A stretch of 64,000 nt of DNA from an uncultured delta proteobacterium. GTDB lineage: Bacteria > Desulfobacterota > Desulfuromonadia > Geobacterales > DSM-12255. The stretch covers positions 288,001-352,000 of the forward strand of contig CAWBBV010000007.1 of the NCBI GenBank assembly GCA_963787125.1, in the 5' to 3' direction. Both the position numbers and the translations under genes were made by a program. A model generated the notes under the pieces. It ran no database searches, was not told the origin of the DNA, and worked only from the letters and a program-made list of their open reading frames with translations. Positions within the stretch are counted from its first letter, which is position 1. Every line of letters begins with the position of its first letter. Of this stretch, positions 9,376-42,695 are shown one piece after another.

Positions 9376-9920
9376 CCAGAGCCGACAGCTACGAAGCCCT
9401 GTCCCGGCTGATCGACTATCCGGCGGAGAAAACCGGACTACAGAGTGACTGCACTATGGTGAGTGGCTTTATGAAGCAGCAGAAGATGAATTCAAAGCTG
9501 CTTTCAGCCTTTGCTGATTTTGCCGAAACAGCAACTCTGGCCGCGCTGCAGGAGGAGTACGTCGCCACCTTTGACTTCAATCCGGCCACCGCCCCCTATC
9601 TTGGTCATCACCTGTTTGGCGACAATCAGAAGAAGGGTGGTTACATGATCATGCTGAAGCAGGAGTACCTGCGGTGCGGCTACAGCCCCGAAGGGGTCGA
9701 ACTGCCTGATCATCTTGCCGTGGTGCTGGGGTTCCTGGCCCACCTTGCCAGGGGGAAAGGCACCGTCCCCCGGCAGAAATTCATTGCCGATTGCGTTTTG
9801 CCGGGGGTTGAACGATTGCATACCGCTTTTGGCGAGCGGCAGGAGTCACCTTGGAAATCCCTGGTTGAAACAGCAAGGCTGCACTGTGCTGAAGATTGCA
9901 AGGAGGTGCATTCATGTTAG
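9372..9920 (+). CDS. narJ: Nitrate reductase Mo-cofactor assembly chaperone
   Basis: LQEEYVATFD and ELPDHL motifs; position in operon. Confidence 0.92.
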   Translation: MTRADSYEALSRLIDYPAEKTGLQSDCTMVSGFMKQQKMNSKLLSAFADFAETATLAALQEEYVATFDFNPATAPYLGHHLFGDNQKKGGYMIMLKQEYLRCGYSPEGVELPDHLAVVLGFLAHLARGKGTVPRQKFIADCVLPGVERLHTAFGERQESPWKSLVETARLHCAEDCKEVHSC

Positions 9921-10585: not shown

Positions 10586-10586
10586 T

Positions 10587-10691
10587 CCCCTCTCCATGAG
10601 GGAGAGGGCTAGGGTGAGGGGGAAATGCTGGATACTTGCACCGCTCCCCCTCATCCGGCCTTCGGCCACCTTCTCCCTCAAGGAGAAGGGA
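10587..10691. repeat. BoxC/CIR-like composite palindromic intergenic element
   Basis: CCCCTCTCC-n5-GGAGAGGGCTAGGGTGAGGGGG facing CCCCCTCATCCGGCCTTCGGCCACCTTCTCC-n5-GGAGAAGGG. Confidence 0.7.
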
Positions 10692-10731
10692 TTAGCCGAG
10701 ACTTAGACATTGCCCAAGAAGGAGTTTGCAG

Positions 10732-12252: not shown

Positions 12253-12272
12253 CGGTAGATGAGGAGACAACA

Positions 12273-13646
12273 ATGGCACGTGTATTAACGATATGGAATC
12301 CGGAAGATAAGGAATTCTGGGAAAAGGAAGGGAAAGCCATTGCCAATCGCAACCTCTGGATTTCCATCCCGGCACTGCTACTGGCCTTCTCGGTCTGGAT
12401 GGTCTGGTCCATGGTGGTAGTGAAATTGCCATTGATCGGCTTCAAATTCGACACCAACCAGCTTTTCTGGCTGGCCGCAGTGCCGGCACTCTCGGGTGCT
12501 ACCCTGCGTATTTTCTATTCTTTTATGGTGCCGATTTTCGGCGGTCGCAGGTGGACCGCGATCTCCACCGCATCGTTGCTCATTCCTGCCATCGGTATCG
12601 GTTTTGCCGTGCGGGAACAGTCCACCAGTTACACCATCATGCTCATCCTGGCACTTCTTTGCGGTTTGGGCGGTGGCAACTTCTCCTCAAGTATGGCTAA
12701 TATCAGTTTTTTCTTTCCCAAAGCCCAAAAAGGGACTGCTCTCGGGCTTAATGCCGGTCTTGGCAATCTGGGTGTCTCGGTGATGCAGTTTTTAATTCCG
12801 CTGGCAATTACCGCCGGTGTCCTTGGCGGGGTCTGCGGCGATCCTCAAGTCTGTGTCGTCAAAGGTGTGCCCACCAATCTCTGGCTGCAGAACGCCGGCT
12901 TCATCTGGGTACCGTTTATCGTCGTCGCCACTATAGCCGCCTGGTTCGGCATGAATGATATCGCCAGTGCCAAGGCTTCATTCAAGGATCAGGCAGTGAT
13001 CTTCAGACGCAAGCATAACTGGTTGATGTGCTGGCTTTACCTCGGCACATTCGGCTCATTCATCGGCTTTGCCGCCGGGTTTGCTCTTCTCACCAAGAAG
13101 CTTTTCCCGGAGATAGACCCGACCCAGTACGCTTTTCTTGGGCCGTTGGTCGGCGCCATTGCCCGCCCTATTGGCGGCTGGATCTCCGACAAACTTGGCG
13201 GCGCGCGCGTCACCGTTTGGACTTTCATTGCCATGGTGTTGGCAGTGTTCGGCGTACTGGCCTTTCTCCCCCACAACGGCCAGGGTGGGAGTTTCTTCGG
13301 TTTTTTGGTCATGTTCCTGGTTCTGTTTACCCTGACCGGAATCGGCAATGCCTCGACTTTCCGCATGATTCCGATAATCTACATTACTGAACACCAGCGT
13401 GCCTCTAATGGCAGAAGTGAGGCTCAAATTAACATGGATGCTGCCAAGGAGGCTGCTGCCGCCCTCGGGTTTGCCGGTGCATTAGGCGCTTACGGCGGGT
13501 TCTTCATTCCCAAAAGTTTCGGTACATCTATCGCCATGACCGGAGGTCCGGAGGCCGCTCTCTATGGCTTCATTGCATTTTATATGTTATGCATCATCAT
13601 GACCTGGTGGTTCTACTCACGCAAAAATGCCGAAATGCCATGTTAA
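12273..13646 (+). CDS. narK: NarK2/NarU-type nitrate/nitrite antiporter
   Basis: WNPEDKEFW, RNLWISIP, GGGNFSSSMANISFFFP, GTFGSFIG. Confidence 0.95.
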   Translation: MARVLTIWNPEDKEFWEKEGKAIANRNLWISIPALLLAFSVWMVWSMVVVKLPLIGFKFDTNQLFWLAAVPALSGATLRIFYSFMVPIFGGRRWTAISTASLLIPAIGIGFAVREQSTSYTIMLILALLCGLGGGNFSSSMANISFFFPKAQKGTALGLNAGLGNLGVSVMQFLIPLAITAGVLGGVCGDPQVCVVKGVPTNLWLQNAGFIWVPFIVVATIAAWFGMNDIASAKASFKDQAVIFRRKHNWLMCWLYLGTFGSFIGFAAGFALLTKKLFPEIDPTQYAFLGPLVGAIARPIGGWISDKLGGARVTVWTFIAMVLAVFGVLAFLPHNGQGGSFFGFLVMFLVLFTLTGIGNASTFRMIPIIYITEHQRASNGRSEAQINMDAAKEAAAALGFAGALGAYGGFFIPKSFGTSIAMTGGPEAALYGFIAFYMLCIIMTWWFYSRKNAEMPC

Positions 13647-13702: not shown

Positions 13703-15520
13703 TAGTGTCAAAAGTTTCATGAAAAGCCGGGATATTGAAATGGAAAGTACTCGAAAGTAAACGATGCCCTTCATCTGCATCTTTTCCGAGTCTGTCCAGA
13801 CTGTGACTTCACTACTTTGTGGTTACTGGCTTGAATTTTGGGCAAGCCACTCTGTGACCAGGCACGTGAGATAGTTGGTCAGATTAAAACAACAATCAGT
13901 AAATTGATCTTTGAAGACGGGAAGTCAGGCAGCTAGCGAGAGGATCTTGGTCCATCTAGCCTGAATGGTCGGCAGTGCCTTCAACTCCTGCAAAGGCACC
14001 GGTGGTAGATATTTTAGCGACATGTGAGGCCTGAGGAAGTTGTAGTGGGTCACAAACAGCGTAGTTAAAGATACCGCACCGTTTGTGCTGTTGAATCCTG
14101 CTGCTGGCCTTACATGATACTTGAAGGTTCTGTTGAGCCGCTCAACGAGCTGCTTGAAGGATCTGTACTCTTCGGACTCGGCATCAAGGTTTTGGAGGCC
14201 AATAACCTTTTTGTGCTGAATCGTCTGGGAATCATCAGTCTGGGCATTGATGAAATGAATGCCAGCTGGATAAGAAGGGTTTCCGTCGCTGACAAGGGTT
14301 ATTTGCTGATCGGCAGAAGCAGTCCTGATGGCTTCATTCATAGCGATAATGGCAGGCTGAGTGCCCCTGTTATCGGCCACGTGATAGGCGGAGATTTTCA
14401 GGTTCTTTGCCGAGATAAAAAAGAAGACATAATGGTGCTTGCCCAGGATCTTGATGTAGGTCTCATCACCTGCAGAGATATTATCGATATGGCCTTTATG
14501 CTTGAGATTGAATCGGTGGCAGTGCCAGGCGGCGCCAGCGGCATAATTGAGAACTGTCTGATGAGAAACCTTGATACAGAAGACTTCGCGCAGGATTTGA
14601 GCAGTTTTTCTGGCCGGAACGGCGAATGAAACATAGAAAGTCAGAATCAGGCCAAGCACGTTTTCGCTGTTATGGATTCTCGCCAGTTCGACCGGCGGTT
14701 TGTCCGGAGAAGAGAGTTCCAACTCTTCCGGTTTGTAGTGATATTCGCGGTACTGGTAGTTGATTTTGAACTGAGAACTTTTCTTTTTCATCAGCTCTTT
14801 CTCGGCTTTATTGAGCTTGGCAAGCGCCTGGATACGGTGAGGACAGTTATCATTTGGGCACTTGTGGATGGTCACTTCCTTTTGCGACTTCCACCTGAAG
14901 AGAGCCAGCCCGCAATGGGGACAGAAGAGCTTTGACTTTCTGTTGGTTCTGAAGCGCTGTTGGAGTTGGAAGAGTTGAGAGCAAACCTTGCAGAGAACTT
15001 GAGAGCGCTTCTTTCCGTCGTTGAAGTAGAGATAAGTATTTGGCGCTCCGCAGCAGGGACAGGTGACATGCACTGGAACCGGTGATGAACCCGCCCGGAG
15101 CTTGACCGGAGCAAGAGACTTTCCGTGAAGTGTTTCGTACTCAATCAGGAGTTGCCGGTAGTCTTTTTGATCGAGGTCTTTTTTTTAAACTTTGGGGGCT
15201 CAGTCAGTGGCGGCTTGGGATCGACAATAAAGTTTCTGTAGTTCGGATGTTTCTCTTTGAAATCGTCCTTTGGCTTAACTTCAGGATTACGATTTTCGAG
15301 GACATCTGACAACCCGACGACGATCTGTTCAATCTCGGTCTTTGTAAACTTGGAGCAAATCCAGACAACAAACCGGGCAGTTTTGGATAGGTACGACATG
15401 AGCTAGCCCTCCATAACTGGCATTCTTAACCAGAATCACGGGGGGAGGCAAGACTTTGATTGGTAATGCATTGAAATTAGAACTGAAAAGCAAAAAGACA
15501 TGTCAAGAAGTTTGACACAA
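13703..15520 (-). mobile_element. Insertion sequence (~1.8 kb) with Zn-finger + DDE (IS6/IS240-like) transposase
   Basis: Imperfect terminal IR T(A/T)GTGTCAAA at 13703 and 15520; flanking CGA direct repeat (13700-13702, 15521-15523; an alternative reading gives CAACGA). Confidence 0.8.
13925..15399 (-). CDS. Transposase, orfA (15399-15145) + orfB fused by -1 frameshift at A_AAA_AAG
   Basis: CPCC/CKVC/CPHC/CPNDNC Zn motifs; DDE residues in GDETY, SDGNPSY, VERLNRTFK; slippery run at 15186-15178. Confidence 0.8.
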
Positions 15521-15545
15521 CGAAAACAACCAAAGGGAGAATATT

Positions 15546-15833
15546 ATGAAAATTACCAGTAGATTTTCCGCAGTAATTACCATCCTTGCCATTTCCACTT
15601 TCGCTGGGACGGTCTTCGCCGCCGATGTTATTGATTTGCCTGCTTCCATGGGGAAGGTCAACTTTCCGCACAAAAAGCACCAACAGATGCTGAAGGATTG
15701 CACAAAATGTCATGAAAAAGCTCCGGGTAAAATTGCAGAGCTCGGCAAAGATTGGGCTCACAAGACCTGCAAAGGGTGTCACACCGAGATGAAAAAAGGA
15801 CCTGTTGCTTGCAAGGATTGCCATAAGAAGTAA
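15546..15833 (+). CDS. Periplasmic triheme cytochrome c7 (PpcA family)
   Basis: Signal peptide, GKVNFPHKKH, CTKCH, CKGCH, CKDCH. Confidence 0.95.
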   Translation: MKITSRFSAVITILAISTFAGTVFAADVIDLPASMGKVNFPHKKHQQMLKDCTKCHEKAPGKIAELGKDWAHKTCKGCHTEMKKGPVACKDCHKK

Positions 15834-15865
15834 GCAGCCACAGCGTATCGATAAGGAGAAAATCA

Positions 15866-16300
15866 ATGAGTGATCTGACGTTTGCCAGCTTGAGTGAGCA
15901 ACTTGTAAGAGAAAGCTGCGATGCTATTCTGTTTTCAGATAAAGAGGGCATAATCCGTCTCTGGAATAAAGGCGCTGAGGCGATGTTTGGTTATAGTTCC
16001 AGCGAAGCCGTTGGCCGGAGTCTGGATCTGTTTATTCCCGAAAATCTTCGCGGACGTCATTGGGAAGGGTATAATAAGGTCATGGTCAGCGGCGTGACCC
16101 GCTACGGCACAGAACTTCTCGCTGCGCCTGGTATCTGTAAGGATGGTACAAAGCTTTCCCTTGAGTTCAGTATGGTGATTGTTCGCGGTGATGATGGCGC
16201 TGTGCTTGGAGTCGGGGCGATAATTCGCAACGTAACCGCTCGTTTCAAGAAAGAGAAGGAGCTTAAAGACCGTCTCAAAGAGTTGGAAGCAGGCCACTGA
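15866..16300 (+). CDS. Stand-alone PAS domain protein
   Basis: WNKGAEAMFGYSSSEAVGRSL...KDGT...IIRNVT plus short coiled coil; AAGGAG RBS. Confidence 0.9.
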   Translation: MSDLTFASLSEQLVRESCDAILFSDKEGIIRLWNKGAEAMFGYSSSEAVGRSLDLFIPENLRGRHWEGYNKVMVSGVTRYGTELLAAPGICKDGTKLSLEFSMVIVRGDDGAVLGVGAIIRNVTARFKKEKELKDRLKELEAGH

Positions 16301-16344
16301 AACTGAATCCACTTGCAGATTGATTATAACGGCAGGTTAAAAAT

Positions 16345-16371
16345 GCCCCGATTCGTGCGGGGCTTTTTTTT
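16345..16371 (+). terminator. Intrinsic terminator
   Basis: GCCCCG/CGGGGC stem followed by T8. Confidence 0.8.
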
Positions 16372-16381
16372 GGAATGAAAT

Positions 16382-16395
16382 TTGACTTAGGTCAA
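16382..16395. promoter_or_regulatory. Crp/Fnr-family (HcpR/Fnr-like) operator upstream of ferredoxin-nitrite reductase unit
   Basis: Perfect palindrome TTGAC-TTAG-GTCAA. Confidence 0.7.
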
Positions 16396-16544
16396 GTTGA
16401 TTTTGGCTAATAAGTAATAGCGTTGTGAAAGTTTTTTCATCCAGTTAATTGAATGTTCGTGGATATCTGGTATTTATTTATAGTCTTACTCTGAAGGTAA
16501 GCTTATAAAAAACTGCTGCTGAAACTGATTTAAACGGGACTTGA

Positions 16545-16739
16545 ATGCCTGAAGCACACTATCTCATCCAGGGCAATATCAGCTGTCTGGCGTTAAAAGG
16601 AGCCTGCTTTGCCTGCGTTGATCACTGCCCCCGCGAGGCGGTCAGCATGGCTCTGGGGGTCGGGATTGTTGTCAACCAGGAGCTTTGCGACGGCTGCAGA
16701 GAGTGCGAAGCTGTCTGTCCAAAAAAAACTGAAAATTAA
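16545..16739 (+). CDS. Small 2x[4Fe-4S] ferredoxin (NapF-like)
   Basis: C-x6-CFACVDHCP and CDGCRECEAVCP. Confidence 0.75.
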   Translation: MPEAHYLIQGNISCLALKGACFACVDHCPREAVSMALGVGIVVNQELCDGCRECEAVCPKKTEN

Positions 16740-16795
16740 CGGAGCAATAGATGTTGGCAGGTGTATTAATTAAAATCTATGAAAAGGAGTAACGA

Positions 16796-18427
16796 ATGAA
16801 AAAAAGACTGTTCACAGCCTTGGTAGTCGGCAGCGCAGCTGTTGCCTTGGGCATCCCTGGTGTTACGGCAGCGGCCAAGGCAAAGCCTGCGGCGAAGATG
16901 GCCAATGATGGCCGTGCCAAGTGCTATGAGTGCCACGATGAGGTGAAAGCGCTGAAAGAGGGTTCCAAACATGCAAAGCTTGCCTGTACTGTCTGTCATG
17001 ACAAACTTGATGCCCATATGGACGATCCGGAGAAGAACAAGCCGGTAACGGTTATTGATCAGGCCCTTTGCGGCAAATGCCATAAGGACCAGTTTGAAAG
17101 CTTCTATAAAATCAATCACGAAGCCGCAGCCCGTAAGGAGAAGGGGATTCCGTCCGGCCGATCGCCGATGCAGGACAAGTTGCTGGCGCCTTACGGCTTC
17201 ACCTTCGAACATAATGAACCCCGCGGCCATGCCTATATGGTTATCGATCAGTTTGCGGTCGATCGTTTTCAGGGGGGGAGATTCCAGTTCAAGGATGGCT
17301 GGAAAGGGGCTGACGCCAACGGAAAAACCTGGGATGTTCTGGTTGACAAGGCTGAGGGAAACAAGGAGTGGAAGCCGCTCTCCCAGAGTGCCATGGCAGG
17401 TAACCCGACCTGTATTCAGTGCAAGACCTCAGACCATATCCTGAAATGGAAATTTCTGGGGGACAAGGATCCCAAGGCAAAGTGGAGCCGCGAATCTAAT
17501 ATTGTCGATGTGGCCAAGGACACTAATAATGCGGTCGGCTGTATTCACTGTCACGACCCGCATGGCACTCAACCCCGTATTGTCCGCGATGAACTGATTA
17601 ACCAGATTGACAAGGGTTCCAAAATGTTTGCCGGCAAGGATGGCAAGACGGATCTAAAGGTAATCAGTTTCCGCGACGGTTTCCGCAAGATAGGGGTGAT
17701 GAAAAAAACTGACTCCCGCATGATGTGCGCTCAGTGTCATGTTGAGTACGCCTGCGGCAAAGGGTATGAATTCGGCACCGCTAAGCCTGTCGGCTTTGAT
17801 GATCAGCGCACCAATCATATGCCGTTGAAGCAGGTTAAGGAGCTGCTGGAACATTATCGTGCTTTGAAATTTTTCGATTTCAAGCATGAGGTGACCGGGG
17901 CGCAGTTAGTCAAACTTCAGCATCCCGAGGCAGAAACCTATTCAGGTAGCGTGCACGACAAAGCTGGAGTCCAGTGTCATCAGTGCCATATGCCCAAGCA
18001 GAAGGGCAAGGGGGGGAAGACCTTCTCAAGCCATGGTGTGATCCGTCCTAGAAATCATATCAAGGAGTCCTGCCTGGGATGCCATCCCAAGGATACAGTG
18101 GAGAAAAAACTTTTTGAAATTGACACCATCCAGAATTATACCCGCGGCAAGATGCGCAAGGCAGAGTACTGGCTGGGGCAGTTGATTGACACCTATGCGG
18201 CCGCACAGCGTATGGGGGTTGTGCCGACCGTCCTTGATCAGGCCAGGGTCAAGCACGAAGAGGCTCACGTCCTTTGGGAGTGGTGGACTGCCGAGAACTC
18301 CGATGGGTTTCACAACCCTGGACTGGCACGAGACAGTCTTGGACTGTCCATAACAGCTTCCAAAGCCGGGGTAAAGGTGCTCAACGATGCAATGGCAGTG
18401 ATCAGGAAGGATGAAGTGAAGAAATAG
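16796..18427 (+). CDS. Octaheme ammonia-forming cytochrome c nitrite reductase (TvNiR/ONR type, NrfA-related)
   Basis: Seven CxxCH plus catalytic CIQCK; EPRGH, CAQCHVEYAC, LQHPE, AENSDGFHNP; signal peptide. Confidence 0.92.
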   Translation: MKKRLFTALVVGSAAVALGIPGVTAAAKAKPAAKMANDGRAKCYECHDEVKALKEGSKHAKLACTVCHDKLDAHMDDPEKNKPVTVIDQALCGKCHKDQFESFYKINHEAAARKEKGIPSGRSPMQDKLLAPYGFTFEHNEPRGHAYMVIDQFAVDRFQGGRFQFKDGWKGADANGKTWDVLVDKAEGNKEWKPLSQSAMAGNPTCIQCKTSDHILKWKFLGDKDPKAKWSRESNIVDVAKDTNNAVGCIHCHDPHGTQPRIVRDELINQIDKGSKMFAGKDGKTDLKVISFRDGFRKIGVMKKTDSRMMCAQCHVEYACGKGYEFGTAKPVGFDDQRTNHMPLKQVKELLEHYRALKFFDFKHEVTGAQLVKLQHPEAETYSGSVHDKAGVQCHQCHMPKQKGKGGKTFSSHGVIRPRNHIKESCLGCHPKDTVEKKLFEIDTIQNYTRGKMRKAEYWLGQLIDTYAAAQRMGVVPTVLDQARVKHEEAHVLWEWWTAENSDGFHNPGLARDSLGLSITASKAGVKVLNDAMAVIRKDEVKK

Positions 18428-30971: not shown

Positions 30972-31466
30972 TCAAAGCGCGTACCTGGAAGCCATGTCGC
31001 AAAAAGCGCCATCATCGGCGCGAATTATGTCATCCAGGCTGACATTATCTATTGTCGAAGGTGCTGTTACGCCATCAGGCCCTTTACTGTATAAATCAAA
31101 GTCTGAGTTCATTAGACCTGGCCCAGTGCGTTCTAAATGAGCGGTATCCCTGTATACGTATGGCGAACCCCAAGGGTCCAGCAAATCTTGTCCCCCTATC
31201 TGTTCAAGACTTTCTGGGATTTTACCCTGGTCTGTGGCAAAAGCAGATATCTCTTTTTCAAGATTACGTATTTCGGAGCGACACCTCGCAACTTTGGCCT
31301 TGTTTATAAATTCCGAAAATCCGACCATTGCCATTGTTGCAAGAACTCCAATTATTGAAACCACAATTAGCAGCTCTACAAGCGTAAAGCCACGGTTGTT
31401 TTGAGCAGTGCCTACAAAACCCAAACGCTTTAACCGTAAATTGGACGCTCCGTGATTAATTGCCAT
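30972..31466 (-). CDS. Type II secretion GspG-like pseudopilin
   Basis: G|FTLVE prepilin motif, DPWGSPYVY, FDLYSKGPDG. Confidence 0.85.
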   Translation of the reverse strand: MAINHGASNLRLKRLGFVGTAQNNRGFTLVELLIVVSIIGVLATMAMVGFSEFINKAKVARCRSEIRNLEKEISAFATDQGKIPESLEQIGGQDLLDPWGSPYVYRDTAHLERTGPGLMNSDFDLYSKGPDGVTAPSTIDNVSLDDIIRADDGAFCDMASRYAL

Positions 31467-31618: not shown

Positions 31619-33583
31619 ATGACCGGCAAGATCGATTCTCTCCTTAAAAAACTGAAGCTTCGCTGGAAGATGCTGGTCATGGTGCTTCCCCTTGTCATTA
31701 TTCCGATTCTCATTGTGGGCGGAGTGACCGGCTATATTGCCAATCATCATGCCTATCTGGGGATCACCCAGGCGAGTAAGGACGATCTCGATCATATGGC
31801 GAGCTTTACCATTGACCTTCTCCAGTCGCATCATCAACAGTTTCAGGTCTACAAACAGGACAAGGAGAGAATATTCAAGCAGGAGTTGGCAGCTCTGGCG
31901 ACTCTTTCATACAATATGGTTGAAGCGCAAAGCCGGCAGTTATCTGTCGGGCGGATTGATCGCAATACTGCCTTGCAAGAAGCCCGGAGCGCATTGAAAA
32001 AAGTTAACGTCGGTGAGTCAGGCTACATTTATGCGATGACCGGTGATGGCACGTTAAAGGTTCATCTGGCACGTGAGGGGGAGAATGTTTATGACGAGCA
32101 GGATGAAAAAGGGCGTTATTTTATCAGGGAGATGTGCAAAAAGGCGCGTCTTTCCAAGCCAGGCGAGGTTCTGTACATAGTTTACCCCTGGCGCAATGCT
32201 GTTCTTGGGGACCAGAGAGCCAGAAATAAAGTAGTGGCTTACAGATATCTGCGCGAATGGGACTGGATAATCGCTGCTGGCGGCTACCTTGACGAAACTT
32301 ACGACAATGAGGCGTTCGAGCGTAGCTCATTCGAGCTTCTAAGAGAGAAACTAAAGCAGAAAAAGGTTGGCACAACAGGATATATCTTCTGTATGGACCG
32401 CAAAGGGACATTCAAGATCCATCCGACAGGTGAAGGGAAGAACTTCTATAACGCCAGGGGAAATGACGGTCAACAGTTTATTCGCGAGATGTGTGAGAAG
32501 AAAAGTGGTTGGATAAGGTACTCCTGGAAAAACAGGGGGGAGTATGATTCCCGTGTTAAAATTGTCAGGTATGATTATTTTGCTCCCTGGGACTGGATAA
32601 TTGCTGTCGGCTCTTATGAAGATGAATTTTATAGCGAGGCAAATAAGATAAAATGGCGAATTATTGCCTGGATGGGGCTGCTGACTTTAATTGTAGGCCT
32701 GGGGGCAACTGCACTGGTGTTTATTGCTGCAAGAGTATTTATCGAACCGATAAACCGGATGCTGACGACAATCAGGCAGGTGAAACGTGGGCGGCTCGAC
32801 GTCCGGGTAGAGATAACTTCTGCTGATGAACTAGGTGAGCTTGGCGCGGCTTTCAACCGGATGACAGAGATGATCCAGCGTAATCGCACCCTGGAAGCTA
32901 CGCTTGCCCAGCAGGGCAAGATGGCGTCGCTCGGAGTGCTCTCTTCAGGAGTGGCTCACGAGATCAATAACCCCCTTGGTGTTATTCTCGGATATGCCGC
33001 TTATCTGGAAGGGAAGATGAGTGAGGATGATCCTGGCTATAAATATATCCACGAAATAAAGCGGGAGAGCAAGCGCTGCAAGAAGATCGTGCAGGAGCTT
33101 CTCAATTACGCCCGGACGCCGAAACCGATTCTGGCGGAGATCGATCTCAATACGCTCCTTGAACAGATAATCGATTTTGCCGCAAACCATACCGACATGC
33201 ACGATGTCAGGGTAGTAATGGAGCTGGAGAAGGGGCTGCCTGCAGTGATGCTGGATGGTGACCAGATGCGTCAGGTGGCTATCAATCTCATTCTTAATGC
33301 TGGCGCGGCAATGGGAGTAGGCGGGATACTTAAGGTTTCTACCTCCATAGAGGCTGAATATGCGGTTATCAGGTTTTGCGATAATGGCAGCGGTGTCCCC
33401 CGGGAAAATCTGGAAAAAATCTTCGAACCGTTCTTTACCACAAAAGATAAGGGCACCGGCTTGGGGCTTGCTATCACCAAGCAGATCATTGAGCAGCATC
33501 ACGGCAAAATTGCAATAGATAGTGTAGCCGGAATAGGGACGACAATCACGGTAAAGTTGCCGTTCATTCCGGAGGAGTTTTGA
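31619..33583 (+). CDS. Cache-HAMP sensor histidine kinase
   Basis: Two TMs around tandem Cache_2-like domains, HAMP ([11 protein letters not shown]), [24 protein letters not shown]. Confidence 0.93.
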
Positions 33584-33752: not shown

Positions 33753-33854
33753 TATATTGTCACCGAAACGGCAAAACACGGGTAACCGTGTGACGCAAAG
33801 CTACCTGTCCAATACCTGATTGGATAGAGGGGCAGTCGAAGGGCAGATGGATAT
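33753..33854 (+). ncRNA. c-di-GMP-I (GEMM) family riboswitch aptamer
   Basis: GGCAAA-ACACGG-GTAA-CCGTGT-GACGCAAAGCTA matches the GEMM-I P2 (GNRA loop) and junction consensus; second hairpin CTGTCCAAT/ATTGGATAG; terminator directly after. Confidence 0.8.
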
Positions 33855-33889
33855 AAGCCCACCATTCGTTGTGTGGGCTTTTTTATTTT
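33855..33889 (+). terminator. Leader terminator (riboswitch expression platform)
   Basis: AAGCCCAC...GTGGGCTT followed by a T-tract, ~35 nt before the ATG at 33923. Confidence 0.85.
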
Positions 33890-33922: not shown

Positions 33923-36844
33923 ATGTTTCGCAGACACTCCAGAATAATCGCCGCGGTTGTTTTATCTTTCTTCACCTGGACGTCAGGCGGTGTCTTCAGC
34001 ATTGCCCATGCGGCGCAGGATGCCGTCAAAAAGTCTAATGCCCAGCCTCAGGCGAAGAAGGGCGAAGGGGCGGAGGAGCGTTTTGCCAGGCTGACAGAGG
34101 AGCTGAGTGCCGATCTCTTTGACCCGAAAACCGGTCATGTACACAAGAGGCAGCGGCTGACGGCGCGTAAGGTTGAGCTGGACTCCCTCGACACTGACAT
34201 TCGCCAGCAGTTTGCCGAAACGGAAAAGAAGCTAAAAGACGCCAAGCTGCCCGCTGAGATCCTGGCGCGGCATGCCAAATTCGTCAAACACTATGACGAC
34301 AACCTGGCTGAGTTGAAAGGGAACATGGCGCTGGTAGAGAGCGCCACCGATGCAGCGGAGACCGAAGCTGCAATCGATAAAACCCGCCAGCACCTGGAGC
34401 GGGTCAAAGCCCCCTCCCGCCACAAGAAACTCGATCCCAACAATCTTCCCCACCGGCAGCCGAAGGCGCTGAAGCGGGAGCCTCGGCTGAAGAAAGAAGA
34501 TTTCGACAAGGATCTCAAAAAAGACAAACACGCCTGGAAAAGCGCCAAGAGAATCATGGTCGCCTCGACCGGCTCCGTTGCCGGGCTGCTCCCTGCCGAT
34601 GATCTGGCCGAAACCGTTGAGGTGCAGCTAACTCCGGAGATAAAAGCCAAGGCGCTGGAGCTGGGGAACAGTCCGGTGAAGATCTACGAGTGGGTGCGGA
34701 ACAACGTCAAGTTCGTCCCCACCTGGGGCTCCATCCAGGGGGCGCAGATGACGCTTCTGACCAGGCAGGGAAACTCATTCGACACAAGTTCCCTCCTCAT
34801 CGCCCTCCTGCGGGCAGCCGGGATCAATGCCCGCTATGTTACCGGCACAGTTGAACTTCCCATTGACAATATCATGAACTGGGCCGGAGGTTTCACCGAC
34901 CCAATGGCCGCTCTCGATTTCATGTCCAGTGGCGGCATTCCCACCAAGGGACTTGTTAGCGGCGGCAAGATTGTTGCTGCCCGCTTTGAGCACGTCTCGG
35001 TTGAAGCCTTCATCGACTACATCCCCTCCAGAGGGGCGAAGCACAAGCAGGGACAAGGTGACACCTGGATACCTCTTGATCCGAGCTATAAGCAGTACAC
35101 CTTCACTCAAGGCATCGACATCAAGTCCGCCGTCCCCTTCAACGCTCAGGGGTTCCTCGACCAGATCAAGGCAACCGCCGCCATCAACGAAACCGCAGGC
35201 TACGTCACCGGTATCGACTCCCTCCTTACCCAGCAGACCATGCAGGACTACCAGGCACGGGTCCAGAGCTACATCCAGCAGAACCACGCCAACGCCACCG
35301 TCGGCGATGTCCTCGGCAAGAAAGAGATCGTCAAAAAAGAGTACCGCCATCTCCTCGGCACCCTGCCGTATCGCACCGCAGTCAAGGGAAGTACGTTTAC
35401 CACCATCCCCGACAGCCTGCGGCACAAGCTCTCCTTCAGAGTAGAGAATGAAGCAACCAACACCTTCGTTGACCCCGAAGCACCGGCACCGGTGGATAAC
35501 TCCCTCACCATAAACAAAAGCCTGGCGGAACTGGCAGGCAAGAAGATAACCCTCAGCTACTCACCGGCAACCGTACAGGACGAAGCGGTCATTAACTCCT
35601 ACCTCCCCCGGCCCCATGCAGACGGCACCCCCATACAGCCAAGCGAACTGCCAACCCAGCTCCCGGCGTACCTCATCAATGTCAAACCGGAACTCAGAAT
35701 TGACGGGCAGGTGGTAGCCACCGGAGCGCCGGTAGGCCTGGGCGGCATCAACATCTCCACCATGACCTTCTCCGACCCTGCCTACGGCTCAAGCCAGGTC
35801 ACCAACTACATTGACGCCGGGGTCTATCAGGCAATAGGGCTCAACTTGGGGAGGATCAGCGCTGAGCAGTTAACCAGTCTAAAAGCAAAACTGGAAGCTA
35901 CCAAAGCAAAGCTGCAGAACAACGACTTTGCCACCATGACCAAGGATGATCTGATGGGTGATCTCCTCTACACCACCGCCATGTTTTATCATTCCGGGCT
36001 TGACAAGATGAACAACATCATCGCTCGAACCCTGAATGTCAGTGCTATCACCCTTCCATCGGAAACCATTTTCGCCACCAAGCTCAATGTCATGATGTTT
36101 TTCGGAATACCGAGATATGTCCGGGCAGGCGGCTTGAACATGGATGCGGACTACCTCGTACAGGTGGTAAAATCTAAAGACGGCAATGTTGACACTGCCA
36201 GGCACTACATGCTCAGTAGCGGCATGACGTCATCGGCTCTGGAACATGGCGTGCCGGAACAGCTCTTTTCGACGACAGATACCCCGTTAGAGGGTGTAAG
36301 CACAATAAAAGCGCTCAAAATCGCCTCAGACCAAGGCATTCCAATTTATACAGTAAACCAGAGTAATATTGCCACCACACTGCCGCAACTGCAAATCAGT
36401 CAGCAGATAAAAGACGACATCACTAACGCAGTTAACGCAGGTAAAGTTGTCACCGTTTCTAAAACCAACATTAATTTCAACGGCTGGAATGGTTGCGGGT
36501 ACATTATTGCTAATCCGGATACCGGTGCCGGGGCGTACATGATTAGTGGTGGAACAAGCGGTGGAGATATTATTCTAATCGGTGCATTTCTAAGAAACGA
36601 TATAATTAACGCGCTGGTCAAGTATGCTCCAGAAAAAGAAGCTTTTACTCGGGCAACATCAAAACTCTTAAACGAAGGTGAACTGCTTAATGTTCTAATA
36701 GAAGTAACACAAAAAGAAGCAGCAAATGCTGCTGCACTTAGGGTATTACTTGGCTCACTTCTTGGTGCTACCGTAATTGTTTTGACTCCGTCAACATTAC
36801 AAGATCCGTATTTAGGTGCTGATGGTAATTGGTATTGGCCATAG
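33923..36844 (+). CDS. Secreted transglutaminase-fold protein, copy 1 (973 aa), variable 93-aa C-terminus
   Basis: Signal peptide ending AHA; IYEWVRNN...GNSFDTSSLLIALLRAAGINARYV...EHV...WIPLDPS; GGAGG RBS. Confidence 0.85.
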   Translation: MFRRHSRIIAAVVLSFFTWTSGGVFSIAHAAQDAVKKSNAQPQAKKGEGAEERFARLTEELSADLFDPKTGHVHKRQRLTARKVELDSLDTDIRQQFAETEKKLKDAKLPAEILARHAKFVKHYDDNLAELKGNMALVESATDAAETEAAIDKTRQHLERVKAPSRHKKLDPNNLPHRQPKALKREPRLKKEDFDKDLKKDKHAWKSAKRIMVASTGSVAGLLPADDLAETVEVQLTPEIKAKALELGNSPVKIYEWVRNNVKFVPTWGSIQGAQMTLLTRQGNSFDTSSLLIALLRAAGINARYVTGTVELPIDNIMNWAGGFTDPMAALDFMSSGGIPTKGLVSGGKIVAARFEHVSVEAFIDYIPSRGAKHKQGQGDTWIPLDPSYKQYTFTQGIDIKSAVPFNAQGFLDQIKATAAINETAGYVTGIDSLLTQQTMQDYQARVQSYIQQNHANATVGDVLGKKEIVKKEYRHLLGTLPYRTAVKGSTFTTIPDSLRHKLSFRVENEATNTFVDPEAPAPVDNSLTINKSLAELAGKKITLSYSPATVQDEAVINSYLPRPHADGTPIQPSELPTQLPAYLINVKPELRIDGQVVATGAPVGLGGINISTMTFSDPAYGSSQVTNYIDAGVYQAIGLNLGRISAEQLTSLKAKLEATKAKLQNNDFATMTKDDLMGDLLYTTAMFYHSGLDKMNNIIARTLNVSAITLPSETIFATKLNVMMFFGIPRYVRAGGLNMDADYLVQVVKSKDGNVDTARHYMLSSGMTSSALEHGVPEQLFSTTDTPLEGVSTIKALKIASDQGIPIYTVNQSNIATTLPQLQISQQIKDDITNAVNAGKVVTVSKTNINFNGWNGCGYIIANPDTGAGAYMISGGTSGGDIILIGAFLRNDIINALVKYAPEKEAFTRATSKLLNEGELLNVLIEVTQKEAANAAALRVLLGSLLGATVIVLTPSTLQDPYLGADGNWYWP

Positions 36845-36908
36845 TTGTAAAGAAGTACCAATTCCACTTAGTTACTACAAAAAATATTCAGGGACAAGGA
36901 GTCGTTAA

Positions 36909-37388
36909 ATGTTTGATATAACCAGATTGTTTGGCAAATATGCAAAACCTCACACTAGAACTAAGTTTGAAATTACTACCATTATATGTATGTCAGTATT
37001 TATGCGTAATTTTGAAGAAATTACAAACAAGCGTTCACTACAAGACATTGCAAAATTAATGCAACAGTTTTATGGGCTTATTGCAAGTGCTACTACTGAT
37101 TTTAATGCCGACATTGACAGGTTTTGCCACAACCAAGTGCTAATATATTTTAAGCATGATATTAATCACGCTGAAGATCATGCTATAAAATGCGGACATA
37201 ATATTATTAGTAACTTTCACAATTATGATGAGTCGTTAGATATCGGCGTCGGAATATGTAAAGGTGAAATTATTTATGGCATATTTGGATCTGAAACAAG
37301 AGCTACGGTAACTGGTTTTGGTCCTGTTGTTAACACTTCAATTGAACTATCTAAAAACAAAAGTGGAGTAAATAGCGTTACCCTATAA
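36909..37388 (+). CDS. AT-rich partner 1: degenerate class III adenylate/guanylate cyclase-like protein (putative immunity)
   Basis: AAGGAG RBS; DIDRF, IGVGICKGEIIYGIFGSETR, GPVVN align to the class III cyclase pattern but catalytic residues are replaced. Confidence 0.65.
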   Translation: MFDITRLFGKYAKPHTRTKFEITTIICMSVFMRNFEEITNKRSLQDIAKLMQQFYGLIASATTDFNADIDRFCHNQVLIYFKHDINHAEDHAIKCGHNIISNFHNYDESLDIGVGICKGEIIYGIFGSETRATVTGFGPVVNTSIELSKNKSGVNSVTL

Positions 37389-37478
37389 ACCGGGTCTGTA
37401 CTCTGGGGAAACGTGAAGACGTTGGTAGGTTGTCTCCTTTTTTGAAAAAGAACAAAAGCCGTTAAGTTGGAGGAACCG

Positions 37479-40400
37479 ATGTTTCGCAGACACTCAAGGA
37501 TAATCGCCGCAGTGGTACTGTCTTTCTTCACCTGGACATCAGGCGGCCTGTTCAGCGTCGCTCATGCAGCAACAGCTGCCGTGAAGAAGGCCAAGACCGA
37601 GGCTCCGGCAAAGAAGAGCGATGCGGCCGAGGAGCGGTTTGCGAAGCTGACTGAGGAACTGACAACCGAACTTCTCGACTCGAAAACGAGTCATGAGCAC
37701 AAGAAACAGCGGCTGACGTTCCGCAAGGGTGAGCTGGACACCCTTGACGCCGCCATCCGCAGCGAATTCGCTGCCACCGAGACGAAACTGAAAAACGCCA
37801 AGCTGCCGCCAGAGATCCTGACCAGACATGCCAAGTTCGTCAAACACTACGACGACAACCTTTCCGAGCTGAAGGGGAACATGGCTTTTGTTGAGAGCAC
37901 CCAGGATGCGGCTGAGGCAGAAGCAGCGCTGGAAAAGACCCGCCAGCATTTGGCAAAGGTCAAGGCACCGTCGCGGCACCAGAAACTCGATCCCAACAAC
38001 CTCCCCCATCGGCAGCCGAAGGCGATCAAGCGGGAACCGCGGCTGAAGAAGGAGGATTTCGATAAGGATCTCAAAAAAGACAATCACGCCTGGAAAAGCG
38101 CCAAGAGAATCATGGTCGCCTCGACTGGCTCCGTTGCCGGATTGCTTCCTTCAGATGACCTGGCCGAAACGATAGAAGTCCAGTTAACCCCGGAGATCAG
38201 GGCCAAAGCGCTGGAGCTGGGGAACAGTCCGGTGAAGATCTACGAGTGGGTGCGGAACAACATCGAATTTGTCCCCACCTGGGGCTCCATCCAGGGAGCC
38301 CAGATGACGCTCTTGACCAGGCAGGGGAACTCATTCGACACAAGTTCTCTACTGATAGCGCTGCTGCGGGCCGCAGGGATCAATGCCCGCTATGTTATTG
38401 GTACGGTTGAACTCCCAATTGATAAGATCATGAACTGGGCGGGCGGCTTCACCGACCCCCTGGCTGCCCTAGATTTCATGTCCAGCGGTGGCATACCCAC
38501 CAAGGGTCTGGTTGCCGGGGGCAAGATCGTAGCTGCTCGCTTTGAGCATGTCTCGATCGAAGCCTTCATCAACTACATCCCGTCCCGTGGAGCAAAGCAT
38601 ATCAATGGCAAGGGTGATACCTGGATCAAGCTTGATCCGAGCTTCAAGCAGTACAACTTCACCCAAGGCATCGACATCAAAACCGCCGTCCCCTTCGATG
38701 CACAGGCATTCCTCACCCAGCTGAAATCATCCGCCACCATCAACGAAACCGCTGGATACGTCACCGGCATCAACTCCCTCCTCACCCAACAGACCATGCA
38801 GGACTACCAGACGAGGGTGCAGAGCTACATCCAGCAGAACCATCCCAACGCTACCGTCGGCGATGTGATTGGCAAGAAAGAGATCATCAAAAAGGAATAC
38901 CGCCATCTTCTCGGCACCCTGCCGTACCGCACCGCAGTCAAGGGGGCAACTTTTACCACCATCCCCGACAGCTTGCGGCACAAGCTCTCCTTCAGGGTAG
39001 AGAACGAAGCCGCAAACACCTTCGTTGATCCTGATGCACCGGCAGCGGTGGACAACTCCCTGAGCATCACCAAAAGCCTGGCAGAACTGGCAGGCAAGAA
39101 GATAACCCTCAGCTACTCCCCGGCAACCCCTCAGGACGAAGTTATCATCAACGCCTATCTGCCAAGCCCGCATGCCGACGGCACTCCCATACAGCCAAGC
39201 GAACTCCCCAGCCAGCTACCGGCGTATCTGATCAACGTCAAACCGGAACTCAGGATTGACGGTCAGGTAGTGGCCACCGGAGCGCCGGTAGGCCTTGGCG
39301 GCACCAACATCTCCACCATGACCTTCAGCGACCCGGCTTACGGCTCAAGCCAGATAACCAACTACATTGACGCCGGGGTGTACCAGGCAATCGGGCTCAA
39401 CCTGGGGCGAATCAGCGCCGAGCAGTTAACCGGGCTCAAAGCAAAACTGGAAGCTACCAAAGCAAAACTGCAGAACAACGACTTCGCCGGCATGACCAAA
39501 GATGATCTGATCGGTGATCTCCTCTACACCACCGCCATGGCCTATCATGCCGAACTCGGCACCATGAACTACATTGCCGCAAAAACCATGAACGTCAACG
39601 CCATCACCGTACCGTCAGAAACCATCTTCGCCACCAAGCTCAAAGTAATGTGTCTTTGGGGAATACCGCGCTATATCAGTTCCGGCGGACTCAATATGGA
39701 TGCTGATTATCTGATGCAGGTAGTAAAGGCAAAAGACGGCAACAGCGAGACCGCCAAGCAGTATATGCTCTCCAGCGGCATGACTTCCTCGGCGCTGGAG
39801 CACAATGTGCCGGAGAAGCTCTTCTCCACGCCGGACAGCCCTGCCCAAGGGATCAGCACGGTCAAGGCGCTGAAGATTGCCAATGACCAGGGAATCCCGG
39901 TCTACACGGTCAATCAGGCGAACATTGCGACAGTTATGCCGCAATTGCAGGTGGATCAGCAAGTGAAGGAAGACATCCAGAACGCCGTGAATGCAGGGAA
40001 GATGGTTACTGTCTCCAAGACCAACATCAACTTCAATGGATGGAATGGGTGTGGGTATATCATTACTAATCCGGAAACCGGGGCTGGTGGGTATATGATC
40101 AGTGGGGGGTCGAATGGCGCAGTAATTCAAGCCTTGTGGCTGGCTGGTTACATTATCTTGCATATCCTTGCATTCGCAGGTGTTGCGGCATTGGCTACTT
40201 TAGGTGTTTTATCTGGTGGGTTCGGATCTGCTGTAATATTTCCTGCATTTAGTGCATTTTTAGCTGAAATGATCGCTGTAGTCAGTGCAGGGTATTTAGA
40301 ATTATGCTTATTTGTAGCTAGTGCTCCTATCATTAGGGCATTATATTCCACGGTATCGCTTTGGGCGGATATGAGCCCCCCGCCTTTGCCTTTTCCGACT

Positions 40401-40550
40401 AGTCTCGGAGATTATCAATTTTGGGTGTTCTTCTTTATGGTTCGTATTCTTCACTATTTTGAATTGAAGTGGCTATTGTCTAGAGTCATACTAGAATATA
40501 ATTGGCATATTGTTAGAAGCTATGACATTCAAAATCACATTAGATGTTAA
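37479..40550 (+). CDS. Secreted transglutaminase-fold protein, copy 2 (1023 aa), hydrophobic 143-aa C-terminus
   Basis: Paralog of 33923-36844 up to YMISGG; identical RBS/start GGAGGAACCGATGTTTCGCAGACACTC. Confidence 0.85.
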   Translation: MFRRHSRIIAAVVLSFFTWTSGGLFSVAHAATAAVKKAKTEAPAKKSDAAEERFAKLTEELTTELLDSKTSHEHKKQRLTFRKGELDTLDAAIRSEFAATETKLKNAKLPPEILTRHAKFVKHYDDNLSELKGNMAFVESTQDAAEAEAALEKTRQHLAKVKAPSRHQKLDPNNLPHRQPKAIKREPRLKKEDFDKDLKKDNHAWKSAKRIMVASTGSVAGLLPSDDLAETIEVQLTPEIRAKALELGNSPVKIYEWVRNNIEFVPTWGSIQGAQMTLLTRQGNSFDTSSLLIALLRAAGINARYVIGTVELPIDKIMNWAGGFTDPLAALDFMSSGGIPTKGLVAGGKIVAARFEHVSIEAFINYIPSRGAKHINGKGDTWIKLDPSFKQYNFTQGIDIKTAVPFDAQAFLTQLKSSATINETAGYVTGINSLLTQQTMQDYQTRVQSYIQQNHPNATVGDVIGKKEIIKKEYRHLLGTLPYRTAVKGATFTTIPDSLRHKLSFRVENEAANTFVDPDAPAAVDNSLSITKSLAELAGKKITLSYSPATPQDEVIINAYLPSPHADGTPIQPSELPSQLPAYLINVKPELRIDGQVVATGAPVGLGGTNISTMTFSDPAYGSSQITNYIDAGVYQAIGLNLGRISAEQLTGLKAKLEATKAKLQNNDFAGMTKDDLIGDLLYTTAMAYHAELGTMNYIAAKTMNVNAITVPSETIFATKLKVMCLWGIPRYISSGGLNMDADYLMQVVKAKDGNSETAKQYMLSSGMTSSALEHNVPEKLFSTPDSPAQGISTVKALKIANDQGIPVYTVNQANIATVMPQLQVDQQVKEDIQNAVNAGKMVTVSKTNINFNGWNGCGYIITNPETGAGGYMISGGSNGAVIQALWLAGYIILHILAFAGVAALATLGVLSGGFGSAVIFPAFSAFLAEMIAVVSAGYLELCLFVASAPIIRALYSTVSLWADMSPPPLPFPTSLGDYQFWVFFFMVRILHYFELKWLLSRVILEYNWHIVRSYDIQNHIRC

Positions 40551-40559: not shown

Positions 40560-41465
40560 ATGAAAACAAATCTCAAGTTAATTATTAACAAATACAATAA
40601 CTTCTTAATCGAAATTACAGGTTTTATTTCGGCAAGTCTAATTTTTTCATCTGGTATTGGCCGATATAGAGTATGTATTGCATATGCTGTATACAGTGTA
40701 ATTAAGGCAATTGGTACAATAAAATTTATTGGTAAAACCCCAGACATATTTTTATTGCCGGCTATCGCGATAGCAGTATATTTCGATTTAACAAAAGGTC
40801 CAGTACTCCCACTTTTTACCAATAACTATTTGTTGTTCGCGCTAGCAGTGTTGATCATAGTTGATTTGTTAACTAGGAAGCTAATGAAACGGATGATATC
40901 TACTATCAGCAATGGCGAATTATTTGTAGCGTGCCCTTCATGTAGTTTTGACAACAAAGAGTTAGTGGAAACCTGTAATAATTGCAATTATGACACAAGT
41001 AAAGGGTTTGGTAGATTTTATACCAATATATCATCACGTTTTATAGGCAATGAAATACCCTCAAAGCTATTTCGATTATTGAATATTGGTGAAAATGAAG
41101 AAGTTGTTTATCATAAAAAGCTTACTAGCAATCTGGTTTTTTTAAAAAACAATGAAAGAGAACTAAGAAAGCACCTGATAATAACAACAGAAAATGTGAT
41201 ATTCATTGATTATGAAGGTATTAGCTTTGGCATACCAAAAAGCTATCGTGCAAAAGATATTATTTCTTTAGATAAAATTGAATTTATAAAGTGTGAAATG
41301 AAAAACATTTTTATGGCAAATAGCCCGTTTCTCGAAATTGTAACCATTAACAAAGATTGTTATGGGATTACATTTTCATATTTTGGAAATTACAAGGAAG
41401 AAATGGGTGATATCGTCAAATTAATCACAAATTCGAATCCACAGGTTAAATCGACTCTCATCTGA
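40560..41465 (+). CDS. AT-rich partner 2: membrane protein with Zn ribbon and PH-like C-terminal domain (putative immunity)
   Basis: Starts 9 bp after the copy-2 stop; 3-4 hydrophobic segments, CPSC...CNNC, ENEEV...HLIITTENVIFI...ISLDKI. Confidence 0.65.
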   Translation: MKTNLKLIINKYNNFLIEITGFISASLIFSSGIGRYRVCIAYAVYSVIKAIGTIKFIGKTPDIFLLPAIAIAVYFDLTKGPVLPLFTNNYLLFALAVLIIVDLLTRKLMKRMISTISNGELFVACPSCSFDNKELVETCNNCNYDTSKGFGRFYTNISSRFIGNEIPSKLFRLLNIGENEEVVYHKKLTSNLVFLKNNERELRKHLIITTENVIFIDYEGISFGIPKSYRAKDIISLDKIEFIKCEMKNIFMANSPFLEIVTINKDCYGITFSYFGNYKEEMGDIVKLITNSNPQVKSTLI

Positions 41466-41553: not shown

Positions 41554-42695
41554 GTGTTTAATTGCATAAGTTAGCTATTGTATTTCTAAGCTGAGCGCCT
41601 CTGACTTCTCGTTTGCGCCAAACAAAAGGAGAAGCGGTTTCGTTGTAGCTGGCAATAAATGCTTCGATTGAATTCGTCAACTGTTCCGTGCTTGAGAAAC
41701 TGGCTCCAGATAAGGTTTTACGGCTAAGTATCCCAAACCATATTTCTACCTGATTGAGCCAACTGGCCGAGGTCGGCGTAAAGTGGAAGTGGACATTGGG
41801 ATGTAAGGCCAGCCAATCTTCATTTTTCTTGTGTGTACAGTAGTTGTCGAGAATTACATGAATATCTTCACCATCTGGAACCGTTGACACTATATCATCG
41901 AGAAACGCCTGAAAGTCCGGTCGTTTTTTAGTTACAGTTGTTTTCGACTGGATAGTTCCGGCGGCAACATCTAGTGCTGCAAATAGATTGATGACGCCAT
42001 GCCGCTTATAGGTGCTCTTCAGGCCGCGAACAATTTTACCGCTGCTTGTCTGCACATAACCGGTTGACCGCTCCAAGGCCTGTATAGATGGTTTCTCGTC
42101 AATACAGAGTACCAATGCTTTCTGTGGCGGTGCCAGGTATAAGCCGATTATGTCGGCTGACTTTACCGAGAATTCAGGATCAGTGCTGACACACCACGAA
42201 CGGTGTCGCCGCAACTGAATGCCGTTTTTACGCAGTATGCGCCAGACAACATCATCTGAGACCGCCAATGCTTTAGCCAGTGCACCGCCATCCCATGCCG
42301 CCAGACCTGCTGGCGGAGACTCTTCCAGCTTGGCGAGTATGCGCTGCCTTAACTCTAATGCTGGATATTTAGCTGGCTTGCCGGAACGGGGTTTGTCGTA
42401 TAAACCCGAAAGACCATGAGCCGCAAAGCGTTTACGCCAGATGCCCACAGTCAGCGCTTGCGTATCAAGCTCGGCTGCGACCTCATCATTGCGCTTACCG
42501 GACAGACAGTAAAGTATGATTTTAACTCGCTCCACAATGCGTATTTCTTCGGTCCGGCTTCTGCTTATGCGCTCTAGCTCTTGCACGACCTTGGGCTCAC
42601 AAGTTAGCGCTATTGCAACCCTGGGCATATGACACCTCCATCTCTAGTGGGATGGAGACAGTATAATACTTATATTAACTATTGCAACTAAACAC
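41554..42695 (-). mobile_element. IS630-family insertion sequence
   Basis: IR GTGTTTA(A/G)TTGCA..AGTTA at both ends; TA duplicated (41552-41553, 42696-42697) in a CTAG target. Confidence 0.93.
41558..42628 (-). CDS. IS630 transposase
   Basis: HTH, DKPRSGKP, CIDEKPSIQAL, ILDNYCTHK, SWLNQVEIWF. Confidence 0.96.
   Translation of the reverse strand: MPRVAIALTCEPKVVQELERISRSRTEEIRIVERVKIILYCLSGKRNDEVAAELDTQALTVGIWRKRFAAHGLSGLYDKPRSGKPAKYPALELRQRILAKLEESPPAGLAAWDGGALAKALAVSDDVVWRILRKNGIQLRRHRSWCVSTDPEFSVKSADIIGLYLAPPQKALVLCIDEKPSIQALERSTGYVQTSSGKIVRGLKSTYKRHGVINLFAALDVAAGTIQSKTTVTKKRPDFQAFLDDIVSTVPDGEDIHVILDNYCTHKKNEDWLALHPNVHFHFTPTSASWLNQVEIWFGILSRKTLSGASFSSTEQLTNSIEAFIASYNETASPFVWRKREVRGAQLRNTIANLCN

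Follow-up and report, generated by a model that had tools for sequence, protein, structure and literature searches.

Why does a gene for what looks like a dead nucleotide cyclase lie directly behind the variable C-terminus of a putative exported toxin, in an operon headed by a riboswitch? This question is raised by a 159-residue reading frame, here called ORF159, in a stretch of 64,000 nucleotides from an uncultured delta proteobacterium; this whole stretch is referred to as the window. The original prediction, made from the letters of the sequence, had described ORF159 as a class III cyclase without its catalytic residues, and had proposed that the cyclase fold was re-used as a binding or immunity protein, or as a decoy or dominant-negative partner, of a toxic tip encoded just upstream.

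ORF159 has its own ATG and Shine-Dalgarno-like sequence, begins 64 bp past the end of the upstream tip (tip 1) and contains no transmembrane (TM)-like segment. The Pfam family Guanylate_cyc matched it below threshold (14.5 bits, where the cut-off is 21.9; E 0.028), and a scan of NCBIfam gave no match. A phmmer search of the PDB returned 21 sequences at E<=10, of which the top 19 were class III cyclases; the best match was Cya2 (2w01_A, E 1.2e-6), with residues 23-148 aligned. HMMER, run exhaustively over 1.84 billion representative sequences, gave 329 matches at E<=1e-3, and an alignment of ORF159 and 21 of the best-matching relatives (alignment A1) provided both a profile and the input for AlphaFold2. 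The profile matched 24 PDB sequences at E<=1e-3, adenylate cyclases without exception, with CyaC (1wc0) the best at 1.8e-18. The AlphaFold2 model reached a mean pLDDT of 90 and a pTM of 0.82, and when it was compared with the PDB by Foldseek, as the original prediction had suggested, it matched 183 structures at E<=1e-3, and every one of the 35 that were listed was a class III cyclase. The best of these was 2w01_C (E 4.4e-12). TM-scores were 0.74-0.77 when normalised to the query, with Cya2 and CyaC at the top, and 0.55-0.66 when normalised to the target, the solved cyclase domains being 178-211 aa long. Among 30 ESM Atlas matches, 29 lay within Guanylate_cyc-type clusters. The end of the cyclase domain is incomplete in ORF159, and because its C-terminus falls only 13 residues beyond Glu146, it is about 40 residues shorter than the solved domains. 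Sequence comparison and the predicted structure together confirm that ORF159 is a class III nucleotide-cyclase homologue with the fold of the cyclase homology domain.

Class III cyclases use a two-metal mechanism, and the loss of both metal-binding aspartates is incompatible with this mechanism. The active-site positions were read from an alignment to 2w01 and from a MAFFT alignment with two intact cyclases, taken from among the matches, as reference, and the two readings agree with each other and with the original prediction. The first metal aspartate (FxDIxGF) has become Phe31 (SVFMRNF), the second (DKFIGD) has become Asn75 (DRFCHN), and the transition-state arginine (VNxAxRL) is replaced by Glu146 (VNTSIEL), while the transition-state asparagine is kept as Asn142. 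Arg71 occupies the lysine position four residues ahead of the second aspartate, Thr135 lies seven residues ahead of the asparagine position, and Arg131 is invariant across the family in A1. Since both metal ligands are missing, two-metal catalysis by ORF159 is not expected; with the transition-state arginine gone as well, its residues mark it as a pseudo-cyclase, from which synthesis of cAMP or cGMP is not expected.

The top-ranked HMMER relatives of ORF159 are stand-alone proteins of 160-214 aa, unlike ordinary cyclases. P0002 (162 aa) is 69% identical to ORF159 and keeps Asn75 and Glu146, P0003 (160 aa) is 45% identical, and both share length and start with ORF159; P0004-P0029 match it at E values from 1e-18 to 1e-9. 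Alignment A1 reveals motifs that are the family's own, namely VC.V in strand 1, GDIDRFC(G), GVGIC.G, RATVTGFGP and.C(A/S)..L(A/S), and most of its members carry a C-terminal extension of about 35 aa with a conserved His. ORF159 bears the FC, GVGIC.G and RATVTGFGP motifs but is without this His-bearing extension and has Thr143 where other members, P0002 and P0003 included, have a Cys after the asparagine position. Four Cys (in VC.V, FC, GIC and.CA) are conserved in the wider family together with the C-terminal His, and judging from the alignment this set could be a metal site that replaces the lost aspartate pair; ORF159 itself misses one of the four Cys and the His.

The active-site alignment by MAFFT comprised the 49 matches of at most 235 aa among the top 150. 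Its 37 members of the dead-cyclase clade show Asp at site 1 in no case (four being N-terminally partial) and at site 2 in two cases; six ordinary short cyclases in the same alignment read D-D-N-R. Pfam Guanylate_cyc recognises 4 of the 22 A1 members at E<=0.01, and the public names of members are 'class 3 adenylate cyclase', 'adenylate/guanylate cyclase domain-containing protein' and 'hypothetical protein'. In a quick IQ-TREE run on 149 cyclase-domain envelopes (two of 151 sequences, with envelopes under 120 aa, were dropped), with SH-aLRT as the only support measure and a midpoint root only, 38 rows including ORF159 form one clade with a support of 94, opposite 108 ordinary cyclases. Seven of these rows (P0010, P0030, P0040, P0053, P0076, P0102 and P0107) had been missed by a label set of 31 made by eye. 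The clade branches from within the ordinary class III cyclases and is deeply diverged, with long branches; ORF159, P0002 and P0003 make up a subclade (support 100) that is sister to the rest and has no C-terminal extension. According to these alignments and this tree, ORF159 falls in a clade of dead cyclases, small proteins that stand alone and number at least 38; this is a maintained family and not a product of decay.

The features of the locus are collected in Table 1. The cyclic-dinucleotide riboswitch that had been predicted for the operon is borne out as a c-di-GMP-I aptamer at its head; the ligand preference of this RF01051 aptamer may be c-di-GMP or 3'3'-cGAMP. The hairpin behind it is likely to be the terminator-type expression platform of the riboswitch; a simple terminator scan of positions 33500-41700 gave no site on the + strand, and the hairpin came from RNA folding. 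Just upstream of the riboswitch lies a gene for a double-Cache/HAMP histidine kinase (31619..33583, + strand), and the opposite strand of this region (30972-33583 of the window) carries a T2SS pseudopilin-G-like gene (30972..31466, - strand) and a gene for a zinc-ribbon protein.

Table 1. Coordinates of the features discussed (window positions, except for the last row, which uses positions within locus L013 on another contig of the same genome)
Feature	Position	Strand	Remarks
c-di-GMP-I riboswitch aptamer, head of operon	33760..33840	+	Rfam RF01051, 57 bits (gathering score 35), model 1-87 full
Terminator-like hairpin and U-run	33855..33889	+	AAGCCCAC...GUGGGCUU then UUUUUUAUUUU; RNA fold -17.9 kcal/mol, z -2.57 vs shuffles
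Trunk protein 1	33923..36844	+	973 aa; ATG after GGAGGAA; recorded as P0159
Tip 1, putative toxin ('LNEG' helical tip)	36563..36844	+	93 aa; variable C-terminal module of trunk 1
Shine-Dalgarno-like AAGGAG	36896..36901	+	7 nt upstream of ORF159 ATG; read from sequence
ORF159, dead class III cyclase-fold protein, putative tip-1 immunity protein	36909..37388	+	159 aa; from sequence and model
Trunk protein 2, paralog of trunk 1	37479..40550	+	tip 2 at ~40128-40550
ORF301, AT-rich, putative immunity partner of tip 2	40560..41465	+	301 aa; behind tip 2
DDE_3/HTH transposase at locus border	41558..42628	-	Pfam DDE_3 4.4e-21, HTH_32 6.9e-13
Trunk-paralog ORFs of L013	5173..8220, 9078..11099, 12317..13387, 14059..17103	-	array of trunk copies

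Trunk protein 1 consists of a signal-peptide-like N-terminus (judged by eye), a transglutaminase-like core, a large conserved body and tip 1. The core is recognised by Pfam as Transglut_core (1e-14), with the catalytic Cys replaced by Ser (GnSfD against GvCrD of 3isr). Trunk protein 2 is 84% identical to trunk 1 across 886 residues, and the two diverge abruptly after YMISGG, tip 2 being a different, multi-TM hydrophobic module; the Pfam scan of both trunks found no RHS family or repeats. ORF301 has TM-like segments, two CxxC pairs and a GC content of ~0.30, and its Pfam match to the zinc-ribbon-like DUF2614 is sub-threshold only. Rfam found no riboswitch belonging to trunk 2 itself, and RNA folding gave no stable hairpin in the trunk 1/ORF159 gap or in the 78-bp spacer between ORF159 and trunk 2. 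Because the gaps hold no hairpin and trunk 2 has no separate riboswitch, a single transcript is likely. The GC content falls from ~0.57 to 0.33 over tip 1 and ORF159 (0.33-0.39 in tip 1) and drops a second time over tip 2 and ORF301. Tip 1 and ORF159 thus share a foreign base composition.

The same trunk recurs in this genome in at least five paralogs, which differ from one another in the tip as well as in the small ORF behind it, so tip and partner change together. At least three of them lie on another contig (locus L013, G000:C16:28000-47500) as copies of 1015 aa and 1014 aa and a third that is split into parts of 356 aa and 673 aa, interrupted by a two-ORF insertion sequence (11130..12271, + strand). 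The tips of L013 are all different and hydrophobic, and the AT-rich ORFs downstream (146, 196 and 142 aa) have TM-like segments; the Rfam scan of this stretch gave no riboswitch. One copy is separated from its 146-aa partner by a 461-aa transposase-like ORF (3760..5145, - strand). Elsewhere in the genome (L012, G000:C4:125823-126104), an isolated 94-residue fragment in a 143-aa frame is 72% identical to trunk residues 715-808 and is probably a trunk remnant.

Public data hold 607 relatives of the trunk at E<=1e-10, the named ones from Desulfuromonadales-type bacteria, and the family is uniform in length (about 970-1060 aa). For the 120 relatives listed, the only Pfam domain on record is PF01841, with PF28006 in addition in two, so no Pfam domain covers the variable tips. 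Tips were read from 121 proteins (P0159-P0279), which are these 120 relatives and P0160, an Rhs fragment from the metagenomic locus L045; 76 of them fit the junction pattern with a tip of at least 20 aa, and the other 45 are motif variants, truncated proteins or P0160, which is not a trunk protein. The 76 readable tips fall into 26 BLAST clusters, and 62 of them have two or more TM-like segments. The LNEG motif occurs in a single one of the 76, the window's tip 1, and the tip 1 module is present once in this genome.

Tip 1 has one TM-like hydrophobic segment (residues 54-79) behind a helical part. Its AlphaFold2 model is all-helical with a pLDDT of 53, which is too poor for a fold search to be meaningful, the ESM Atlas gave no usable match, and the tips matched Pfam and NCBIfam at sub-threshold level only (DUF6854 at 0.0075, PadR, FlbT), i.e., no known family. 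Tip 1 is an outlier of the trunk family, with its one TM-like segment and its soluble partner; a soluble immunity protein would be the odd one out because the sister tips are multi-TM modules with membrane-protein partners. The size, helicity and hydrophobic helix of tip 1, together with the membrane type of its sister tips, suggest from sequence and model that it may be a membrane-active peptide, in which case the task of a soluble immunity protein would be to capture the helical part of the tip from the side of the cytoplasm. A complex prediction for ORF159 and tip 1 returned no answer (score 0.02) and speaks neither for nor against binding.

The upstream neighbours of ORF159 homologues, to which the original prediction had pointed as a check and a possible refutation, provide the decisive evidence for the pairing with tip 1. 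In one genome record (L044), the clade member P0008 (188 aa) starts 24 bp past the end of an Rhs protein whose 93-aa tip, after DPLGL, is 42% identical to tip 1 over 55 residues (pairwise E 1e-13). On a metagenome contig (L045), the clade member P0012 (191 aa) lies behind an Rhs C-terminal ORF, the final ~95 residues of which read ...YLNEGELEQVL... followed by a hydrophobic helix, the same module as tip 1. Both of the other readable members therefore follow a tip-1-like sequence, and with the window this makes three of three readable loci that have a separate upstream gene. The three tips share the invariant patterns L.R...I and LNEG.L...L. A fourth case is the metagenomic P0030 (206 aa), in which the end of an Rhs core (RYYAP...DPTGL) is fused in-frame to a pseudo-cyclase of which the C-terminal two thirds are present, the first ~65 residues of the cyclase domain being absent; we interpret it as a recombination scar, although it could also be a cyclase-like piece in the toxin slot of an Rhs protein. 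The pairing rests on these three loci and one fusion, out of a clade of at least 38. Because the four pseudo-cyclases concerned fall in four different subclades, the association of tip and pseudo-cyclase looks old. A profile of the tip, run against longer proteins in what is a weak search, matched three, which are the three paired proteins. Contig searches with ORF159 in genome contigs and with P0002 in metagenome contigs gave no match, and a 29-residue match at 52% (L046) was left out of the pairing analysis.

The distribution of the dead cyclases is sporadic. No counterpart of ORF159 was found at E<=1e-8 in any of 40 relatives, seven of them of the same genus. Across 400 other genomes of the phylum there was no family-grade match, the best (1.4e-25, against 7.3e-56 for the window) falling in long frames, and among 96 genomes of the class to which the L044 genome belongs, the only match at E<=1e-28 was that genome (G401) itself. 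Taken with the sequences of the paired loci, this fits a mobile two-gene cassette of LNEG tip and dead cyclase that would have become joined to delivery proteins of at least two kinds.

In polymorphic toxin loci, the immunity gene usually lies downstream of the toxin. The ORF159 gene is on the same strand as trunk 1 and directly downstream of its variable C-terminus. A gene that travels with the tip and stands directly behind it is, in polymorphic toxin systems, the immunity gene, and for this reason we favour the reading that ORF159 serves as cognate immunity protein to a new helical toxin tip, the putative LNEG toxin, and consider it reasonably likely. On this reading ORF159, a soluble pseudo-cyclase, comes from a family of dead cyclases, small and stand-alone, that is old and monophyletic and that travels as a two-gene cassette with a helical LNEG tip of ~90 aa, carried by Rhs proteins at two metagenomic loci and by a Sec-exported, Cys-to-Ser transglutaminase-like trunk here. 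Within a polymorphic toxin, tip 1 would form the toxic module; ORF159 would bind and neutralise it in the cytoplasm of the producer and in sister cells. The operon of trunk 1, ORF159, trunk 2 and ORF301, if co-transcribed, would be switched by c-di-GMP via the terminator-type riboswitch.

Conservation of the pairing across trunks suits any obligate partner, immunity protein or other, and tip 1 carries a TM-like helix. ORF159 might consequently be an accessory protein or chaperone that keeps the tip helix soluble or aids its loading or export, with protection coming from elsewhere. We regard this as unlikely, as the gene occupies the position that is usual for immunity genes, no alternative candidate immunity ORF exists between tip 1 and trunk 2, and the Sec-type N-terminus of the trunk leaves no obvious need for a loading factor in the cytosol.

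Improbable in our estimation is the idea that the immunity protein was derived from the toxin's target. The LNEG tip would be a small helical inhibitor that attacks or blocks class III cyclases, for example at the dimer interface, and the dead cyclases would descend from that target as inert decoys that soak the toxin up. Such a history would agree with the origin of the family within the ordinary class III cyclases and its retained fold, with the non-metal positions it has kept (the invariant Arg131 as well as Arg71, Thr135 and Asn142) and with the presence of ordinary cyclases in this genome. However, none of the results ties tip 1 to cyclases. In its small size, its helicity and its partial hydrophobicity the tip resembles a membrane-active peptide, and the family has diverged far from real cyclases on long branches. 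Thus, of the re-use of the cyclase fold that was originally predicted, the immunity role is in keeping with the slot of the gene and its dead catalytic set, whereas the decoy or dominant-negative partner and a tip that targets cyclases found no support. If the decoy reading were true, a weapon switched by c-di-GMP would silence cAMP/cGMP signalling in rival cells; the synthesis of second messengers would then be the point of attack of a toxin used between bacteria, and the immunity protein would have arisen from duplication of the target.

Less probable again is a nucleotide-binding sensor or regulator that has nothing to do with the toxin and whose place behind tip 1 is incidental. Several ligand-contacting positions are retained, and the Cys and His that the wider family conserves may indicate a site for a metal or ligand, but a tip-1-like neighbour in all three readable loci, with unrelated trunks and different subclades, is at odds with an incidental position, as are the foreign GC content that ORF159 shares with the tip and its absence from all 40 relatives. 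Least probable of all is that ORF159 is the remnant of a genuine cyclase gene in decay or, alternatively, an unorthodox cyclase that has kept its activity: its short C-terminus and sub-threshold Pfam score would fit, but the pseudogene reading was rejected on the confident model, the same-length homologues with an equal start (69% and 45% identity) and the clade of 38, and the active-cyclase reading on the loss of both metal aspartates from the sequence, which contradicts the established two-metal mechanism.

The cognate immunity protein thus remains the preferred reading, and it can be set against what is known. ORF159 has fold and sequence homology in common with the class III cyclases (Cya2 2w01, CyaC 1wc0, CyaB 3r5g) and retains Asn142, the invariant Arg131 and the GxxxG-type strands; it differs from them in having neither the metal aspartate pair nor the transition-state arginine, no sensor or membrane domain and a C-terminus about 40 aa shorter, and in falling into a separate clade marked by distinct motifs. 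A cyclase fold in a non-catalytic role is familiar from the degenerate site of heterodimeric cyclases, where it forms half of an active heterodimer; in contrast, members of the ORF159 family stand alone and are associated with toxin genes.

The locus resembles polymorphic toxin/immunity cassettes such as the Rhs C-terminal toxins, as presented in the main part of the survey by Zhang et al. (2012, PMC3482391), in its conserved trunk, variable tip and small cognate gene. Both also have arrays of paralogs, a low GC content and IS elements in the vicinity; tip 1 and ORF159 differ from these cassettes in matching no Pfam or NCBIfam family above cut-off. The main part of that survey also describes 'inactive transglutaminase' heads in Sec-dependent polymorphic toxins, with the transglutaminase-like domain after a signal peptide (Zhang et al. 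2012). The window's trunk has the same signal-peptide-like start and a Cys-lacking transglutaminase-like core; however, the toxins in that part of the survey have an RHS repeat array, whereas Pfam finds no RHS repeats in the window's trunks. In the main part of this catalogue of toxin and immunity families, the word 'cyclase' occurs four times, always in ADP-ribosyl cyclase, and neither this text nor our literature search yielded a class III cyclase-fold immunity protein. The type of system is known; its novelty appears to lie in the toxin module, in the fold of the immunity protein and in the combination of trunk and riboswitch.

If the preferred reading is true, ORF159 would represent a new fold for immunity proteins, and a whole clade of cyclases would have lost catalysis and been kept as binding proteins. 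The LNEG tip would be a new, putatively toxic small module whose carriers, between which it moves, are Rhs proteins and a transglutaminase-like trunk, the latter being common in Desulfuromonadales-type bacteria. For annotation, the cyclase labels that public databases attach to the dead-cyclase clade overstate what these proteins can do. A putative interbacterial weapon operon under a c-di-GMP riboswitch would link the signalling of the biofilm state to competition.
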